Shown: positions 20,200-59,541 of the stretch, piece by piece
Layout of the letters: every line of letters begins with the position of its first letter
Numbering within the stretch: position 1 is the stretch's first letter
Assembly (NCBI GenBank): GCA_015075175.1
Contig: JABTUV010000001.1
Location: 1,103,677 to 1,167,676, forward strand
DNA length: 64,000 bases
Direction: 5' to 3'
Origin: a bacterium
GTDB taxonomy: Bacteria > Hinthialibacterota > Hinthialibacteria > H5-UNCL2
Program-made: the position numbers and the translations under genes
Notes under the pieces: model-generated
What the model saw: the letters and a program-made list of their open reading frames with translations, nothing else
The model's database searches: none
Told to the model about the DNA's origin: nothing

Positions 20200-20460
20200 G
20201 CGCCGGCGCCTCAGCGCCGCCCGCGCGATTGCCCCGCAATCGCGCTCGTAATCGCAAGCGATTGCGATTTGTCATCGTGCTGTTACGGATGGAGCTGTCA
20301 TTTCGACCGAAGGGAGAAATCCATCTTGCTGTTACCGCGGGGCGGGCGCGATGCAGAAGATCTCTCGCTTCGGTCGAAATGACAGCTACGATTACAGGCA
20401 GGATTAAGGTTACGATTACGAGTGAAACGGCGCCGCAGCCGAGTGCCAAGCAAGGAGAGA
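20200..20460. repeat. Composite element, copy 1: hexanucleotide arrays (CGTAAT-like / ATTACG-like) flanking a 20-bp perfect inverted repeat with a 58-bp core
   Basis: Left arm AGCTGTCATTTCGACCGAAG and right arm CTTCGGTCGAAATGACAGCT. Flanks are cgcaatcgcgctcgtaatcgcaagcgattgcgattt on the left and ctacgattacaggcaggattaaggttacgattacgag on the right. Confidence 0.7.
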
Positions 20461-22069: not shown

Positions 22070-22420
22070 GTTTGCGGAACGCAATCGTAATCGTAATCGT
22101 AGTCGATTACGGCTCGTCACCATGCTCGTGCTCGCAAGTCGTAATCGTACTCGTACGGATAGATCTGTCATTTCGACCGAAAGATGCTGTCATTTCGACC
22201 GAGAGATGCTGTCATTTCGACCGATGGATGCTGTCATTTCGACCGAGAGATGCTGTCATTTCGACCGAAGGATGCTGTCATTTCGACCGAAGGATGCTGT
22301 CATTTCGACCGAAGGGAGAAATCTTTCTCGCTGTTACCGCCGGGCGGGTGCGATGCAGAAGGTTTCTGCCTTCGGTCGAAATGACGGCTGCGACGACGAG
22401 TACGAACAAGATTAGGATTA
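22070..22420. repeat. Composite element, copy 2: CGTAAT hexamer array, then 7 tandem 22-bp copies of the left-arm motif (nnnGATGCTGTCATTTCGACCGA), then core and right arm, then hexamers
   Basis: Direct reading of 22158-22315. The core CTGTTACCGCCGGGCGGGTGCGATGCAGAAG is nearly identical to the core of copy 1. Confidence 0.75.
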
Positions 22421-24842: not shown

Positions 24843-24893
24843 CCATTCCCTTTCGTAATCGTAATCCTAATCGATTACGAGCACGACTCGCTG
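24843..24893. repeat. Solo hexanucleotide array (cgtaatcgtaatcctaatcgattacgagcacgactcgctgcg)
   Basis: Same CGTAAT/ATTACG motif as at 20.2 kb and 22.1 kb. Confidence 0.6.
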
Positions 24894-31378: not shown

Positions 31379-32988
31379 ATGCAGTGGTTCGTTCTTCTGG
31401 GCACGGCGTTTTTCATCCTTCTGGTCGCGTCGCTCAGTTTTGTGGCCTCGCGCTACAAGCGCTGCCCCTCCGACAAGATTCTGGTGATCTACGGCAAGGT
31501 GGGGCGCGGGCAGTCGGCCCGCTGCATCCACGGCGGCGGCGCCTTCATTTGGCCGCTCATCCAGGACTACGCCTTCATGCGCCTCACCCCCATGACCATC
31601 TCCATCCCCCTCCAGAACGCCCTCTCGATGCAGAACATCCGCATCAACGTCCCCAGCACCTTCACCATCGGCATCTCGGTCGATCCGGCGGTGATGAACA
31701 ACGCCGCCGAACGCCTCCTGCACCTGGAGGTGCGCGACATCGAGGAGATGGCCAAGGAGATCATCTTCGGACAACTGCGTCTGACCGTCGCCTCGCTGAC
31801 CATCGAGCAGATCAACCAGGACCGCGAGAGCTTTCTGGAGGCGATCCGCAAGAACGTCGAGCCGGAGCTGAACAAGATCGGGCTTTACCTGATCAACGTG
31901 AACATCACCGACATCACCGACGAATCGGACTACATCGACAGCATCGGCAAGAAGGCGGCGGCGGAGGCCATCAATCAGGCCAAGATCGACGTGGCCCAGC
32001 AGGACAAGCTGGGCGCGATCAGCCACTCAGGGCCTGCGCGCGACGGACCATCAAGGTCGCCGAAAACACCCAGGCCGAGAAGAGGAAGGCGGCCAAAGCG
32101 GACCGGCGCGTCTACGATGCAACAGCAGGGAGACGACGGCCTCGGTGGGCAGGCGGCCGCCAATCCGACGCGAGATCAAGGTTGGCCGAAAACCTGGCTC
32201 AGGCGAGAAGGGCAAGAAGGCGGCCGAAGCGGACAAGCGCGTTTACGTCTCCGCCCAGGAGGCCGACGCGGTAGCCGGCGAGAACACCGCCAAGGCGCGC
32301 ATCGCCGACGTGGACGCCGAGCTGGCCGTCAAGCAGGCCGCCGCGCTGCAGCGCGCAGAAGTCGCCCGCCGCGAGGCCCAGGTCGAGATTCAGAAGGCCC
32401 AGTATCGCGCCGAGCAGGAGCGCCTCACCGCCGAAGAGGTGGTCAAACAGGAAATCTCCAAAAAGAAGATCGAGATCGCCGCCGAAGCCCAGGCCGAACG
32501 CCTCCGCCGCGAGGCCAGGGGCGAGGCCGACGCCATCCTGCTCAGGTACGAGGCCGAAGCCAAGGGCATCCGCCAGGTGTTGGAGTCCAAGCGCAGGGCT
32601 ATTCCAGCCTGGTCAAAAGCTGAGGGGCGATGCCAAGGCCGCCGCTACCCTCCTAATGATCGAGAAGATCGAGGAGATCGTGGCCCGCCAGGTGGAAGCC
32701 ATCAAGAACCTGAAGATCGACAAGATCACCGTCTGGGACAGCGGCGGCGCCAACGGGTCATCGACCTCCAGTTTTATCTCCAGTCTGATCAAGAGCCTGC
32801 CGCCGCTGCAGGAGATCGCGCAGATGGCGGGCGTCGAGCTGCCCGGCTACCTGGGACGCATGGCGGCGCCAAGCCCCCGCCAACCGGGCAGAGTCAGGCT
32901 GACACCGCTCATGATTTGCGCATTGTCATCTGGAATTGCGTGTCCCAAAATGGTTGCGGGAACAAGAAAAACCCGAGTCCGGCAGTAG
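31379..32988 (+). pseudogene. Flotillin-like SPFH domain protein (YqiK/FloA-like) with several frameshifts
   Basis: N-terminal TM plus SPFH domain (31379-32020) in one frame; the charged AEA.R/IKVAEN repeat region and C-terminus (DKITVWDSGG...GVELPGYLG) are spread over at least 3 frames. Confidence 0.7.
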
Positions 32989-32989
32989 C

Positions 32990-33720
32990 GGGAAAAATAA
33001 AAAACCCGAGTCCTCGAGTAGCCGGTACTCCGGCGTATCGAGAGGACGGCCGCGACGCGAGCAGGCCGGTGTTACGCCGCCGTGCCTCTCGATACGGCCC
33101 CGAAGTTACCTGTTGTCTCCATTGGAGGTGCCTCGCCGGGGCCTACTCGAGGACACGGCTCAGCTTTTCGCATTCCGGCTTGGAAAGAGTTGTTGAATAG
33201 AGCAGTTCCGAAAGAAAGAAAAACCCGAGTCCTCGGGTAGCCAGAAAAGAAAACCCGAGTCCGACAGTAGCGGGAAAAATAAAAACCCGAGTCCGGCAGT
33301 AGCGGGAAAAACAAAAAACCCGAGTCCTCGAGTAGCCGGTACTCCGGCGTATCGAGAGGACGGCCGCGACGCGAGCAGGCCGGTGTTACGCCGCCGTGCC
33401 TCTCGATACGGCCCCGAAGTTACCTGTTGTCTCCATTGGAGGTACTCGCCGGGCCTACTCGAGGACACGGCTCAGCTTTCATTCCGGCTTGGAAAGAGTT
33501 GTTGAATAGAGCAGTTCGAAAGAAAGAAAACCCGAGTCCTCGGGTAGCCGGAAAAGAAAACCCGAGTCCGGCAGTAGCGGGAAAATAAAACCAGTCCGGC
33601 AGTAGCGGGAAAAACAAAAAACCCGAGTCCTCGAGTAGCCGGTACTCCGGCGTATCGAGAGGGCGGCCCCGATGCGCCCAGCCCGCCTTCGGAGCGGCCC
33701 CGGTCTTTCATCCTCCAAGG
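32990..33720. repeat. Complex repeat block: a ~345-bp unit duplicated in tandem, each copy holding forward and reverse family A hairpins plus 24-bp AAAACCCGAGTCC-N3-AGTAGCGGG subrepeats
   Basis: Direct reading: 33000-33345 is almost identical to 33345-33690. Confidence 0.7.
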
Positions 33721-54382: not shown

Positions 54383-54494
54383 GAATGCAAACTGAAGTTT
54401 GTACTCCGATGAACAAACTGAAGTTTGTACTCCGGTGAACAAACTGAAGTTTGTACTCCGATGAACAAACTGAAGTTTGTACTCCGGCGACGGA
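54383..54494. repeat. Four tandem 28-bp repeats, each holding a 6-bp-stem hairpin (tGAACAAACTGAAGTTTGtactccgr)
   Basis: Direct reading; CAAACT-GA-AGTTTG palindrome per unit; AT-richer than the flanks; lies in the 5' region of the cytochrome gene. Confidence 0.8.
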
Positions 54495-55936: not shown

Positions 55937-56872
55937 CTAGTCCTTTCGTGCGAAGTACTTGCCTATTCTATGTACGGCCAACCCCCCCGGCTCGTTATCC
56001 ACGAGGACGGCGGAAATCTCCGGTCGGACTTGACAATAAGTCTCAACCTCTTCCACCGTCAACAGGAGAAAGGCGGTGGAGAGGGCGTCACTGCGGCCCG
56101 CTGTGGGCGCCAAGACCCAGCTGGCGGGCCTCTGGCGGGCCGGCCGTCCGGTGCGCGGATCGACGACGTGACAGTCGCTGGGGCTGCCCGGTTCGGCCAG
56201 GAGCGCTCCGGATCCGCTGCACCCTTGGTTTGTCAGGATCAACACCTCCAGCGGCGGGCGGCCCTCTTCGGGATGGCGCAGCTCGATCGGCCAACCGTCC
56301 CAGCCGGGCGGCGCTCCCAGCGCGTACATGCTGCTGGTCCCGCCGTGGACCAATGCGGCCGGCGCGTCCCACGCCATCAGCCGCTCGATCATCTGATCGA
56401 CCGCGTAGCCCTTGCCCAGCGCCCCCAAGTCGATCTGGACGTGGTCGGCGAACACCTGCACGCTGCGGGAAGCGCGATCCAGGCGCAAGAGTTCGCTTCC
56501 CACCCGCTCGTACAGGCCGGCGAGGGTCACGTCCTCTACCTTCGCGTCCGGACCGACCTGGCGCCAGAAATCCAGGAGCGGGGCGATGGTCACATCCAAG
56601 GCGCCGCCGGTCTCCTGGAAGACTTCCAACGCCAACTCCAAGCACTCGAACGCCGCCGGGCCTAGACGCAGGCTGTCACCCGCCGACAGGCGGGCGATCC
56701 GGCTGACGGCGCTGGTGGGATCGAAGCGCGACAGCTCCCGATCCAGCCGGTGCAATACCTCGAAGGCCGCCTGGGCTGCACCGCGCGCCGTCAACTCGTC
56801 CATGCCGGCGATGCGCACCTCGAAGAGCGAGCCCATCGCCCGCTCCTCGTAGCGATGGACGGCCTGGCTCAT
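55937..56872 (-). CDS. FAD:protein FMN transferase (ApbE family)
   Basis: ApbE-like motifs (IDLGALGKGYAVD). Confidence 0.75.
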   Translation of the reverse strand: MSQAVHRYEERAMGSLFEVRIAGMDELTARGAAQAAFEVLHRLDRELSRFDPTSAVSRIARLSAGDSLRLGPAAFECLELALEVFQETGGALDVTIAPLLDFWRQVGPDAKVEDVTLAGLYERVGSELLRLDRASRSVQVFADHVQIDLGALGKGYAVDQMIERLMAWDAPAALVHGGTSSMYALGAPPGWDGWPIELRHPEEGRPPLEVLILTNQGCSGSGALLAEPGSPSDCHVVDPRTGRPARQRPASWVLAPTAGRSDALSTAFLLLTVEEVETYCQVRPEISAVLVDNEPGGLAVHRIGKYFARKD

Positions 56873-58422
56873 CGCCGCGCCTCCAGCATGGCCGCCCACA
56901 GGTCGTTCCGGACGTACAGCAGGAGGGGCACGTCCGGTCGAAGCCCGAAATATTCTTGATGATAGCCGTCTCCGAGCCGGGATTCAAGTTTTTGGGCGAA
57001 GACCAACGAAGTAATGTAAATGGGCGCGGCGAGGTCCGCGGCGGGCGGGCTGTGCCAATAACCGACCCGGTCGTAGGCTCGCAGGTAGAAGGGGAGCGGC
57101 CAGTACTCGGGCGAGATCACGGCGATGGGGGTACTGCGGCCATCGGGACTGTGGGCGGCGACTTCTGCAATGCGTTGCACCAGGTTGAGCAGGTCGGGGA
57201 CGGTCTGGGCGTAGACGTAGGGGTGGCGGCGGCTGGCGGGATACTTGAAGTTGAGCTGCCAGGACTGCCAGGCGAGATGCAGCGTGCCGGCGGCCAGGAG
57301 CGCGGCCAGCGCCATGCGCAACCCCTTGCGCCGGGCGCGTCGCCACAGCCAGGCGACGGCCGCCGCGGCCAAGAGGATGAAGCCGAAGTGAAAGTTCAGC
57401 GCCAGCCAGGGCGTCTTGTAGCGCAGGCCCGAGTAGATGAGAAACGTCGCCAGGCTATAGAGGGCGAGGAAACGCGCGAGCGGCGTGTTTTCATCGCCGG
57501 ATCTTGAAAGAAAGGCGATGCCCATACCGAAGAGCGCCAGGGCCAGGAGGAACGCCTCGCTCCAGACCGGCGCGCCCAAGTTTTTCGTGAAACCAAGAAT
57601 CGCGAGATAATAGTACCACGGCTGGTCGTGCAGGCTGGTGGCGCCCGTGCGCTGAAAGTAGAAGAGCAGCGCTGCCAGGCTGTCCAGCACCCCACGCGGG
57701 TTTCTGAAGAAGCTCGAGTAGAGGAGAAGTGAAATGAGAAACGCGGTCGCCAGCGTTCCCACGAGGACCCCCACGGGCAAGGGCTTGCTTTCGGCCTCGC
57801 GGGGGCGCGGCACGGGCCGGTAGCGGTCCCAGGCCATCGTCATCAGCGTGGCCAGTCCCATCACCGTCATGGCGATCAAGTAGGTTTCCTTGGTGGTCTG
57901 CATGGCGGCGAGGCTTGCGCCGGCGAGAAAAAACCACCAGGCGTGGCGATTCAGGTAGTAGCGCCAGCCGGCCAGGATGGCGAGCGCGGAGAAGAAGACG
58001 AAGTAGATTTCGTGGATGTAGTCGCGGCTGTAGTAGGTGAAGGCGGGGGAGACGGCGAAAAAGAACATGGCGGCGACGGCGGCGCCCCGCCCCAGTCCCT
58101 GCGCAAAGGGCGGCATGAGGACGACGAGCAGGCTTCCCAGAAGCGCCGGTACGCAGCGAAGCGTCCACTCGTCGATCGCTTCAAACGTGGTCGCGCCGGA
58201 CAGCTTCGCGGCTGCCAGCGTAAGATAGTAAAGCAGCGGACCGTGGTACTCCTCCGGGTCGTAAACGTATCGTCCGGTTTCCAGGAGCTCGGCGAACTTG
58301 AGGGCGTTGATGGCTTCGTCGTGATGCAGGGGACGCAGGGGGAGCTCTGGAAACCGCAGGGCGACGGCGACCGCAAGCGCAAGGATCGCCGCTGCGGCGA
58401 GGATACTGCTTCGTGGCTTCAT
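56869..58422 (-). CDS. GT39/ArnT-like integral membrane glycosyltransferase (TIGR03663-like)
   Basis: About 12 TM helices; N-terminal DE-containing loop (HHDEA); 517 aa. Confidence 0.6.
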   Translation of the reverse strand: MKPRSSILAAAAILALAVAVALRFPELPLRPLHHDEAINALKFAELLETGRYVYDPEEYHGPLLYYLTLAAAKLSGATTFEAIDEWTLRCVPALLGSLLVVLMPPFAQGLGRGAAVAAMFFFAVSPAFTYYSRDYIHEIYFVFFSALAILAGWRYYLNRHAWWFFLAGASLAAMQTTKETYLIAMTVMGLATLMTMAWDRYRPVPRPREAESKPLPVGVLVGTLATAFLISLLLYSSFFRNPRGVLDSLAALLFYFQRTGATSLHDQPWYYYLAILGFTKNLGAPVWSEAFLLALALFGMGIAFLSRSGDENTPLARFLALYSLATFLIYSGLRYKTPWLALNFHFGFILLAAAAVAWLWRRARRKGLRMALAALLAAGTLHLAWQSWQLNFKYPASRRHPYVYAQTVPDLLNLVQRIAEVAAHSPDGRSTPIAVISPEYWPLPFYLRAYDRVGYWHSPPAADLAAPIYITSLVFAQKLESRLGDGYHQEYFGLRPDVPLLLYVRNDLWAAMLEARR

Positions 58423-58425
58423 TGC

Positions 58426-58770
58426 CTCATCTTAATCTTAATCTTACTCTTAATCTTAATCTTGCTCTTGCTCTTGCTCTTACTCTTAATCTTAGTGATA
58501 ATCGGCAGTCCGATGCACCCATAGTGCCATTCGCGCTGACGACTACAATCCTTCACTACCAGTTTGGTGGGCACGCTGTACCGCCGGCATCCATGCCGGC
58601 GACCGCGTATGCTCGGTTAAGAGCGAGATTACTACGATTAGGATCAAGATCAAGATCGAGATCAAGATCAAGATCAAGATCAAGAGCAAGAGCAAGAGCG
58701 AGATTAAGAGCAAGAGCAAGATTAAGATTAAGATTAAGATTAGGATTAAGATTAAGAATTCCTTTTCACT
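58426..58770. repeat. Composite element, copy 3: inverted hexanucleotide arrays (CTTAAT/CTTGCT on the left; GATCAA/GAGCAA/GATTAA on the right) flanking a 120-bp core with a CGCCGGCATccATGCCGGCG hairpin
   Basis: Direct reading. The left array is at 58426-58500 and the right array at 58620-58770, and they are reverse complements in motif content. Confidence 0.75.
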
Positions 58771-59464
58771 TCGGCTTGCCGAAGACCTCCACCTCAATAT
58801 ACTGATTCTGCGCATCCGCCGTGTTGCCCTTGGAGTAGAGCCGTACATAACGCGCGGTCGTATCCTTGACGGGAATCAGCTTGCCCTCGAAGGTCTCGTA
58901 ATACTGTTTGTCCTGGCCGATACCGAGGCCCGTTTCGTTGGTGCTGTCATTGTTGAAGTGCGTCTTGACATTCTCAATGAAATCGGGATCGTCCGCGGTC
59001 TGGACCACGACGCCCCTGAAAACACGGGGGTCTTGATGGAAGTGCCAGAGCGCGACGGCGTAAATCTCGCAGGGCTTCTCCAGGTCGATCTGGACCCACT
59101 GCAGGCCGGGGCCGAGCTCGACAAAGGAGCCGTCCACGGTCGCCTTGTCGCCGTCGGTAATGAGTGAGAGCTCGCCGATGATGGGCTCCATGTCGCTGGA
59201 AGTGACTTTCTTGCCCCGGGCCACGTTGACGGTTCCCTCGGGGACGAAGAGGGGCGGGCGGGGGCCTTTGCGGGGCGGCTCGATGTTGGTCCCCGGCGGG
59301 GCGTTCTTGGGCGTGCCGGAAAACACCGGTCGAGGCAAGTCCAACTTCAGTTCCATCATGCCCTTGGGGGGGGCGGTCGCGGAATCCGCCGCCTGTACCG
59401 GTCGTGCCGATGCCCACAGCCCGATCAGGATGGCCGTGGCCAGGAGAATTTTTCCCGTCTTCAT
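58766..59464 (-). CDS. Secreted discoidin (F5/8 type C) domain protein
   Basis: Signal peptide MKTGKILLATAILIGLWASARPVQA; C-terminal discoidin-like beta-sandwich. Confidence 0.65.
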   Translation of the reverse strand: MKTGKILLATAILIGLWASARPVQAADSATAPPKGMMELKLDLPRPVFSGTPKNAPPGTNIEPPRKGPRPPLFVPEGTVNVARGKKVTSSDMEPIIGELSLITDGDKATVDGSFVELGPGLQWVQIDLEKPCEIYAVALWHFHQDPRVFRGVVVQTADDPDFIENVKTHFNNDSTNETGLGIGQDKQYYETFEGKLIPVKDTTARYVRLYSKGNTADAQNQYIEVEVFGKPK

Positions 59465-59541
59465 CGTTTCGATCTCCATGCGCATACGATTCTCTCACTC
59501 CTTAAAACCGATGGGACGCCGCCTTCGGCGTGTTTATTCGT

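Follow-up and report, generated by a model that had tools for sequence, protein, structure and literature searches.

Why are two AT-rich hexanucleotide arrays placed in inverted orientation around a hairpin, precisely between two genes of a GC-rich bacterium, and does the resulting structure act on the genes it joins? The question is raised by positions 58426-58770 of a 64,000-nt stretch of contig JABTUV010000001.1 (assembly GCA_015075175.1, Hinthialibacterota), which is called the window here and whose coordinates are used throughout. An initial annotation of this DNA had described hexamer arrays and a perfect hairpin at this place, and both were recovered with Tandem Repeats Finder (TRF) for the tandem repeats, with a repeat-pairing search for the inverted arms, and in comparison with shuffled sequences. 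The two arrays form the arms of a predicted long stem, and this stem reaches from the end of one cistron, at its stop codon, to the start codon of the following one. We read the element, with rather less than even confidence, as a slippage-grown, transcribed intercistronic RNA "zipper" hairpin that would affect coupling, processing or stability.

Anatomy and placement of the element

Both flanking genes lie on the minus strand of the window, and the element is thus intercistronic within a same-strand cluster. In the sense direction its features and those of its surroundings are:

58766-59485, minus strand: F5/8-type-C (discoidin-like) gene, upstream, 239 aa
58766-58768, minus strand: TGA stop codon of the F5/8-type-C gene
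58642-58757, minus strand: 5' arm (sense), 19 pyrimidine-rich units, namely CUUAAU x6-7, CUUGCU x4-5, CUUGAU x7 and CCUAAU/CUCGCU/CUCGAU variants
58495-58641, minus strand: core between the arms, 147 nt, non-repetitive
58578-58601, minus strand: palindrome resembling a repetitive extragenic palindrome (REP), sense CGCCGGC-AUGGAU-GCCGGCG, then GUAC
58429-58494, minus strand: 3' arm (sense), 11 purine-rich units, namely AAGAUU, AAGAGC and AAGAGU
58425-58428, minus strand: GAGG Shine-Dalgarno, followed by CA and then by the ATG (58420-58422) of the GT39-like gene
56869-58422, minus strand: PMT / TIGR03663 (GT39-like) gene, downstream, 517 aa, with a 100% identical database protein

TRF found period-6 arrays at 58429-58494 (11.0 copies, 90% matches) and at 58642-58757 (19.3 copies, 88% matches), the former made of 11 units of CTTAAT/CTTGCT/CTTACT type and the latter of 19 reverse-complement units; both qualify as long simple sequence repeats, with units of 5-11 bp in copies that run head-to-tail beyond chance. 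The arrays are mutually inverted and give 65-nt arms which are 89% complementary, and 84-89% complementary in several registers offset by 6 nt. All units have the CUUxxU or AxxAAG frame, which makes the arms complementary in any register. The pattern CTTRMT x4 matched the window 13 times, every time within the two arrays, and not once in 100 shuffles. The GC content is 31-35% in the arrays and 65.6% in the window, and the arrays are as conspicuous in a ~65% GC genome as had first been remarked: 539 kb of unrelated GC-rich metagenome DNA held a single hexamer array of at least 30 nt, and that one was GC-rich. One frame per strand of the CTTAAT/ATTAAG units reads TAA, and the purine arm (58429-58494) consists of nine A-R-N triplets in succession. 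The core measures 147 nt (58495-58641) and not the ~120 nt given initially; at its edges (58616-58641 and 58495-58504) it passes into the arrays through degenerate, array-like sequence, and it holds a perfect palindrome of 9+9 nt (58582-58590/58593-58601) around a 2-nt centre, CGCCGGCAT-cc-ATGCCGGCG.

Two contigs of an independent short-read assembly (SRR11593520), which carry the flanking genes, stop 31-38 nt within each array, and the array sequence at their ends is identical to that of the window. This shows that the arrays are real, not an assembly artefact, and that k-mer assemblies break there. They sit between the stop of one gene and the start of another, both of these ends being confirmed by proteins in the databases, and for this reason a coding dipeptide repeat is ruled out at this locus. 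On the sense strand the pyrimidine arm begins 8 nt past the stop codon of the F5/8-type-C gene, and the purine arm finishes 6 nt ahead of the GT39 ATG, 1-2 nt from the GAGG Shine-Dalgarno; the open reading frame (ORF) coordinates thus agree with the earlier placement of the element between the start of the GT39-like gene and the end of the discoidin gene. The GT39/PMT gene is followed by ApbE and then by a GFO/IDH/MocA oxidoreductase, and the cluster F5/8C-PMT-ApbE-GFO is conserved.

The sense strand of the element folds to a stem of ~65 bp at -160.2 kcal/mol (z = -12.7 against shuffles), and the antisense strand likewise folds to a ~65-bp stem at -158.7 kcal/mol (z = -14.8). A second folding comparison gave -156.5 kcal/mol for the sense strand versus -151.0 kcal/mol for the antisense strand, with 10 versus 5 G-U pairs. 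No Rfam family matched anywhere in the window at the gathering threshold, or in 58350-58850 at E <= 10; a tRNA/tmRNA scan of the window and a sigma-70-like promoter scan of the element were likewise negative. An intrinsic (Rho-independent) terminator was rejected, as 58300-58900 contains no terminator-like site on either strand.

Recurrence of inverted hexamer arrays in other bacteria

One genome per species was scanned with the pattern CTTRMT x4, which gave at least 116 stretches; the counts given below are those among the matches listed. These include at least about 33 from the Planctomycetes-Verrucomicrobia-Chlamydiae (PVC) superphylum, at least 17 from Pseudomonas, at least 11 from Desulfobacterota and at least 8 from Acidobacteriota, with further matches in Ignavibacteria, Sumerlaeota, Hydrogenedentes and others. 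Many of the single arrays elsewhere are probably coding dipeptide repeats (KS, EQ, DQ); a test for stop-free stretches was too noisy in GC-rich DNA for the classification of individual arrays. A sizeable subset has the paired design of the window, with a loop mostly of 3-50 nt, and the paired architecture was found in at least 19 loci of Verrucomicrobiota, Planctomycetota, Desulfobacterales, Ignavibacteria, Hydrogenedentes, Acidobacteriota and Chthoniobacterales. Other hexamers are paired in the same way, namely GAACGT/ACGTTC (locus L017), GTACTC/GAGTAC (L034) and, within the window itself, the CGTAAT type.

The order of the arms is biased: the pyrimidine arm comes first in 15 pairs, the purine arm in three, and one is unclear (binomial p = 0.0075). 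Since an inverted repeat reads alike on both strands, a pyrimidine arm in first position means that the purine, Shine-Dalgarno-like arm faces the downstream gene. A start codon lies no more than 45 nt past the 3' end on the purine strand of 28 of 140 arrays, and on the pyrimidine strand of seven of 140. Bridging from stop to start, with a same-strand ORF ending at most 45 nt upstream and an ORF starting at most 50 nt downstream, was seen in 15 of 30 hairpins, and in 13 of the 14 for which a sense strand was inferred the stop lies -3 to +30 nt before and the start 2-29 nt after the hairpin. The suggestion in the initial annotation of a common structural function at gene boundaries fits this bridging.

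Some of the loci found in the scan warrant description in their own right. At L102 (4871-5214), from a metagenome-assembled genome (MAG) of Verrucomicrobiota, inverted ATTAAG/CTTAAT arms form a stem around tRNA-Ser(GGA) with the cloverleaf kept, and as modelled this array stem looks like a processing stem built of microsatellite. At L009 (3189-3531, a Verrucomicrobia MAG) two inverted matches to Acido-Lenti-1 (RF01687) lie just inside the arms and pair together in a palindrome, nested and closed by the hexamer arrays, with a folding energy of -201.7 kcal/mol; one may ask whether the Acido-Lenti-1 "sRNA" is, at that place, the arm of a palindromic repeat. L076 (2300-2470) and L108 (2700-2930), both from Desulfobacterales HSG2, have a common outer inverted repeat, ATACCATAAGTGTAAACTTAAAGATTTCC ... 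CCCTAAGTTTACACTTATGGTAT, with CTTTAT/ATAAAG arrays of differing length at the centre, that is, a dispersed palindromic element with a growing microsatellite middle. In Pseudomonas and Janthinobacterium (L010, L029, L032, L098 and L109) AAGATC/AAGAGC arrays abut classical REPs ending ...GCTCCTAC, and at L109 such REP sequences are abutted by hexamer arrays on both sides.

Orthologous spacers in relatives

The nearest two relatives among those found were identified by means of the PMT protein (L002/L003, 73% identity; L004, 62% identity), and in both the gene order around PMT is kept. Their orthologous spacers, of 504 nt in L002/L003 and 287 nt in L004, contain no hexamer arrays. The L002 spacer has only (GCAATC)x2, right after the stop codon, and L004 has neither hairpin nor repeat. 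At 9582-9604 of L002, however, there is an orthologous hairpin in the same orientation, in which GCCGGCAGGGATGCCGGCGATAC...GCGTGCC aligns with GCCGGCATGGATGCCGGCGGTAC.AGCGTGCC of the window. The comparison of orthologous spacers that had been proposed earlier thus found the core hairpin in L002 and the arrays in neither L002/L003 nor L004. A hairpin present without arrays means that the hairpin is the older component and that the arrays expanded around it in the lineage of the window.

The initial annotation had also considered that the arrays might be unique to this locus, as would be the case for a local product of slippage. They are not: inverted arrays occur in many phyla, and L002 carries a (TACGAG)x4.8 array which ends 2 nt ahead of the ATG of another gene. 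This latter array indicates that hexamer arrays are a trait of the wider lineage.

The core hairpin and its resemblance to TwoAYGGAY

The sense loop of the core hairpin, AUGGAU, is AYGGAY-like and similar to the CsrA consensus; it reads CAUGGAUG. A scan of metagenomes with the pattern GCCGGCANGGATGCCGGCGRTAC returned 99 copies in 90 stretches, many of the contigs coming from the same samples. Some copies are in tandem, 49-66 nt apart, with up to two exact pattern matches per contig in addition to diverged neighbours. Their consensus is aAGA-GCCGGCA(A/G)GGATGCCGGCG-GTAC, and sister variants include AGCCGGCTGGAAGCCAGCGCTAC. On the other strand the hairpin is flanked by GTAC in the window and in the 99 metagenome copies, and sister variants, GTAGCGCTGGCTTCCAGCCGGCT for example, have GTAG there. 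REPs are short, GC-rich, imperfect palindromes beside a conserved tetranucleotide of the GTAG/GTGG type, and by its sequence the core hairpin is a member of a dispersed family of REP-like palindromes. The metagenome copies matched no Rfam family, and their orientation relative to genes was unbiased (5 sense, 7 antisense, in tandem contexts and with a crude gene caller). No hexamer array adjoins any of the 99 copies, and the surrounding 539 kb holds only the one GC-rich array mentioned above; the arrays are therefore rare generally and not a part of the hairpin family. Within the window no second copy of the core or hairpin was found with up to three mismatches.

In the metagenome contigs L270 (5015-5140), L326, L249, L306 and L328, GCCGGCA(A/G)GGATGCCGGCGGTAC hairpins stand in tandem with a spacing of 49-66 nt and alternate with a second hairpin, GGGGCGAGCGTCC(C/T)CGCGAGCC, without an Rfam match. 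The consecutive CsrA-consensus loops of such contigs resemble sponge RNAs of the CsrB/RsmZ type.

The AUGGAU loop recalls the TwoAYGGAY RNA motif (Rfam RF01731; Weinberg 2010, PMC2864571), which has been proposed to bind CsrA (PMC4333381). In Pseudomonas, RF01731 matches lie 38-66 nt from hexamer arrays in L056, L083, L086, L088 (two), L091 (two) and L094, and those in L035 and a second one in L094 lie farther away. On the motif strand the Pseudomonas order is 5'-(CTTKMT)n, a linker of ~50 nt and then the AUGGAU hairpins, which is also the order on the sense strand of the window, and 16 nt (CCGGCATGGATGCCGG) are identical between the window hairpin and the first TwoAYGGAY hairpin of the Pseudomonas copies. 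A profile of the Pseudomonas units of array plus TwoAYGGAY matched the window over this 16-nt hairpin alone (E = 0.39). Membership of RF01731 was rejected, as the window lies below the gathering threshold (43 bits) and gives no match at E <= 10, while the Pseudomonas controls score 43-64 bits. The motif further needs two adjacent hairpins with AYGGAY loops, and the pattern scan of the window gives one (58582-58601). On sequence, then, the window core resembles TwoAYGGAY and does not belong to it: the likeness consists of a GC-rich hairpin with an AUGGAU loop, the 16 identical nt and an array ~50 nt 5' in Pseudomonas, whereas the window has one hairpin and not two, shows no similarity beyond the hairpin and belongs to another phylum. 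Rfam places TwoAYGGAY in clan CL00106, which we take to be the Csr/Rsm clan. The loop of the metagenome hairpin family is CARGGAUG, the core of the CsrA consensus RUACARGGAUGU obtained by systematic evolution of ligands by exponential enrichment (SELEX). Counted by eye, GGA occurs three times in the sense and once in the antisense strand of the window core, with ~2.6 expected from base composition by a hand estimate, and no GGA of the core overlaps the GAGG Shine-Dalgarno; the sequence evidence for CsrA binding in the window is weak.

In L088 (6717-7480) and L091 (5300-6450), both from Pseudomonas, we observed a conserved composite repeat of ~300-400 nt, in divergent pairs around REP sequences, made of an array whose hexamer differs per copy, a linker of ~50 nt (GGCGCCCCGTTAAACCACGCTGGCCGAACGCAGG...), two TwoAYGGAY hairpins and a conserved tail. 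It follows that Rfam TwoAYGGAY matches in Pseudomonas belong to a larger dispersed element.

Sister elements and other repeats of the window

Three further elements of the window are built on CGTAAT-type hexamers:

20236-20425, plus strand: sister element 1, short CGTAAT-type inverted segments around GCTGTCATTTCGACCGAAG...CTTCGGTCGAAATGACAGC, between a secretin-like gene and the next gene
22083-22420, plus strand: sister element 2, (AATCGT)3.8 / CGTACT arm, 6.9 copies of a 22-nt unit, a hairpin core as in sister element 1, and a purine arm
24853-24886, strand not assigned: sister element 3, core-less mini hairpin of CGTAAT / ATTACG-type units

In sister element 2 the first arm begins 17 nt past the stop codon and the purine arm ends 2 nt short of the ATG, a placement like that of the bridging hairpins in other genomes. 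When folded, the 20.2-kb and 22.1-kb elements have their outer hexamer-type segments paired around the inner hairpin core, and folding thus bears out the architecture that the initial annotation had seen as common to these two and the 58.4-kb element. The array near 24.85 kb, which it had taken to be solo, is in fact a small inverted pair, (CGTAAT)2 CCTAAT C|G ATTACG AGCACG, that folds as a hairpin. Its proposal of a family of related elements is not supported if homologous or mobile copies are meant: the core sequences bear no relation to each other, the hexamers are not the same, the core of the 58.4-kb element predates the arrays and there is no second copy.

This genome has an unusual wealth of intergenic repeats, both tandem and palindromic, with other periods of 22, 26 and 30-42 nt. 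At 22165-22315 the unit CTGTCATTTCGACCGAAGGATG, of 22 nt, stands in 6.9 head-to-tail copies and is the left arm of the GCTGTCATTTCGACCGAAGGGAGAAATC...CTTCGGTCGAAATGACAGC hairpin; this hairpin element also occurs once at 20284-20391, one palindrome arm having been amplified alone at 22165-22315. At 32956-33630 a repeat of ~300 nt is present three times, each with A-rich tandem units of 30-32 nt (AAAAAAACCCGAGTCCGGCAGTAGCGGG) followed by a conserved GC-rich segment, which looks like a tandemly duplicated non-coding module. Just 3' of the GFO/IDH/MocA gene, 54388-54486 holds 3.8 copies of a 26-nt unit (CAAACTGAAGTTTGTACTCCGATGAA), each unit a small hairpin, and after it a GGGACAGTCACC..TTTTG hairpin element follows as a half copy, an element that is present twice in L002 (2060-2130 and 9925-9950). 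Finally, 126-327 contains two tandem arrays with periods of 23 and 42 nt and CCTCTCCC..GGGAGG hairpin-like units.

Interpretation

The zipper reading starts from features that are seen directly, namely the anatomy of the element, the complementarity of its arms, its exact placement from stop to start, the bias in orientation and the occurrence of the same design in other phyla. Two hexanucleotide microsatellite arrays probably grew in place by replication slippage, in inverted orientation, and filled the spacer. If transcription runs through the element, as we infer, the ~65-bp stem would bring the stop and start codons together and loop out the 147-nt core with its older REP-like AUGGAU hairpin. 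When translation of the upstream gene ends, 8 nt short of the stem, the ribosome could then melt the base of the stem and free the region beside the downstream ribosome-binding site (RBS), giving translational coupling across the 340-nt spacer; and/or an enzyme of the RNase III type could cut the long duplex, by which the stabilities of the two mRNA segments would become uncoupled. By analogy, any such cleavage and any such effect on expression would follow from the established behavior of structures of this kind. A role at the level of RNA is supported by the lack of a promoter or terminator in the element and by its position inside a conserved same-strand cluster.

Several observations weigh against this reading. 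The folding advantage of the sense over the antisense strand was seen in only seven of 11 loci and is not significant. The GAGG Shine-Dalgarno is placed just beyond the stem, which leaves any occlusion of the RBS hypothetical. Collinearity of the unit variants in the two arms does not exceed that in shuffles (57/66 versus 55.6 +/- 1.4, P = 0.26), and the arms therefore provide no position-specific compensatory evidence. The tight margins to stop and start are also expected from growth in place within a short operon spacer, and the absence of the arrays from the two nearest relatives found means that any function is dispensable or recent.

A serious rival, which we consider somewhat unlikely, is that the element is a neutral by-product: slippage would have given rise to microsatellites in a short operon spacer where a REP-like palindrome was present beforehand, expansions would have been copied between the arms by intrastrand template switching (quasi-palindrome correction), and the result would be tolerated and functionless. 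This agrees with the lineage-specificity of the arrays (L002 has only the hairpin and (GCAATC)x2, L004 neither), with arms of unequal length (11 versus 19 units) for which many registers give equally good pairing, with the non-collinear unit order (P = 0.26), with a genome unusually rich in intergenic tandem repeats (periods of 22, 26 and 30-42 nt) and with a hairpin family lacking any gene-orientation bias (5 sense versus 7 antisense). A strand-symmetric DNA process does not, however, predict either the 15:3 excess of pyrimidine-first pairs or the 28:7 bias of start codons towards the purine strand; moreover, complementarity of 84-89% over long arrays requires the arms to be either young or constrained, and the same architecture arose in many phyla. 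Less probable still is that the core is the functional part, either as a CsrA/RsmA-type binding hairpin in the leader of the GT39 operon or as a small RNA (sRNA) excised from the operon transcript, with the arrays presenting or releasing it. The CAUGGAUG loop, the CARGGAUG loop of the metagenome copies and the CsrA proposal for TwoAYGGAY (PMC4333381) point in this direction, as do the Pseudomonas arrays, which in at least 10 cases stand 38-66 nt 5' of TwoAYGGAY in the same order and orientation, and the retention of hairpin and orientation in the orthologous spacer of L002. Against it stand the lack of an Rfam match (E <= 10), a Pseudomonas profile that matches 16 nt only (E = 0.39), the presence of a single hairpin, GGA counts that are not enriched (3 sense and 1 antisense versus ~2.6) with none at the Shine-Dalgarno, and 99 metagenome copies of which none has hexamer arrays and whose orientation is unbiased.

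Two further explanations concern the DNA. The arrays could be a platform for a DNA-binding or nucleoid protein, or a cruciform or slipped-strand switch resembling phase variation, and such properties as their 31-35% GC in a 65.6% GC genome, a perfect 6-bp period in which the CTT..T core never varies, the nine GATC sites that the (GATCAA) block contains and the slippage-prone nature of such arrays would suit this role; we nevertheless assign it a low probability, given that no promoter-like site occurs in or beside the arrays, that the element lies in a same-strand cluster and not upstream of a divergent promoter, that a 6-bp period is out of phase with the helical repeat of DNA, and that the biases of arm order and start codons point to RNA. 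A miniature inverted-repeat transposable element (MITE), whose terminal inverted repeats would consist of hexamer sites for transposase binding as in the subterminal hexamers of Ac/Ds, was considered very improbable. Inverted arrays with a fixed inside/outside polarity are in its favor, as are the larger palindromic element with central arrays common to L076 and L108 (Desulfobacterales HSG2) and the nested palindromes of L009, but each locus has its own arm lengths and its own mix of units, and many pairs have loops of just 3-20 nt. For the element at 58.4 kb it was rejected: reading of the flanks revealed no target-site duplication, there is no second copy in 64 kb, and the hairpin is present at the orthologous site without arrays.

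The zipper reading can be extended to all phyla concerned, although we regard this broader proposal as improbable. Convergently evolved "bridging" RNA duplexes would then tie a stop codon to the next RBS and also act as RNase III excision cassettes for the contents of their loops, with length and register tunable by slippage. The loop contents may in that case be a ~150-nt RNA with a CsrA-type AUGGAU hairpin in the window, tRNA-Ser in L102 and Acido-Lenti-1 motifs in L009.

Significance and comparison with known systems

Were the element to act at the RNA level, it would represent a simple and repeatedly invented means of coupling cistrons, or of processing them apart, across a long spacer, and through its slippage-prone material the expression of operons would be tied to the dynamics of microsatellites, in phyla whose post-transcriptional control is little studied (Verrucomicrobiota, Planctomycetota, Acidobacteriota and Desulfobacterota). 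Were it neutral, the arrays would nonetheless be markers of a lineage in which slippage and the growth of palindromes are unusually active. In practice, such arrays break short-read assemblies exactly at operon junctions, and the presence of the Rfam motifs TwoAYGGAY (in Pseudomonas) and Acido-Lenti-1 inside or beside such repeats bears on how these motifs are interpreted.

Long simple sequence repeats of prokaryotes at large have one aspect in common with the element, and three further groups of known repeats share features with it. REPs and REPINs are repetitive extragenic palindromes served by RAYT transposases; the core of our element is likewise a 20-nt GC-rich extragenic palindrome, with GTAC as its fixed tetranucleotide flank, in many copies per metagenome and sometimes in tandem, but it occurs once in the 64-kb window, and hexamer arrays are not known to belong to REPs. 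Intergenic palindromes that are transcribed along with genes and act on the mRNA include the Correia/NEMIS elements of Neisseria (through RNase III), the ERIC sequences of Yersinia, REP stabilisers such as that of malE-malF and the processing stems of rRNA and tRNA. These are also long hairpins between cistrons or around stable RNAs, and their action is what would be expected of a ~65-bp RNA duplex; they differ in being sequence-conserved and either mobile or ancient, whereas the stem in the window is a microsatellite whose hexamer mix differs per locus. The short tandemly repeated repetitive (STRR) heptamer arrays, known only from cyanobacteria, are intergenic short tandem arrays as well, with units of 7 nt in place of the 6 nt of the window, and we know of no description of them as pairs that bridge stop and start.

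Literature searches with the hexamer strings and for hexanucleotide or long simple sequence repeats, TwoAYGGAY and Acido-Lenti-1 returned no description of inverted hexamer arrays bridging cistrons. The closest described phenomenon is that of the TAACTGA heptamers, direct repeats present in Beggiatoaceae, Cyanobacteria and Bacteroidetes (MacGregor 2015, PMC4679880), for which 169 direct sets and one indirect repeat were reported and which were proposed to be sites of a post-transcriptional regulator and have no known mechanism (PMC4679880). Like the arrays of the window they are tandem arrays of short units, nearly all of them intergenic, aimed at a downstream start codon and ending a few nt before it, and they occur in distant phyla; they are, however, direct repeats of 7 nt, whereas the window has variant units of 6 nt in inverted pairs which form a hairpin and abut the upstream stop codon. 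Intergenic repeat hairpins and microsatellites near start codons are thus known, and what appears to be new is the use of inverted hexamer arrays to bridge two cistrons.

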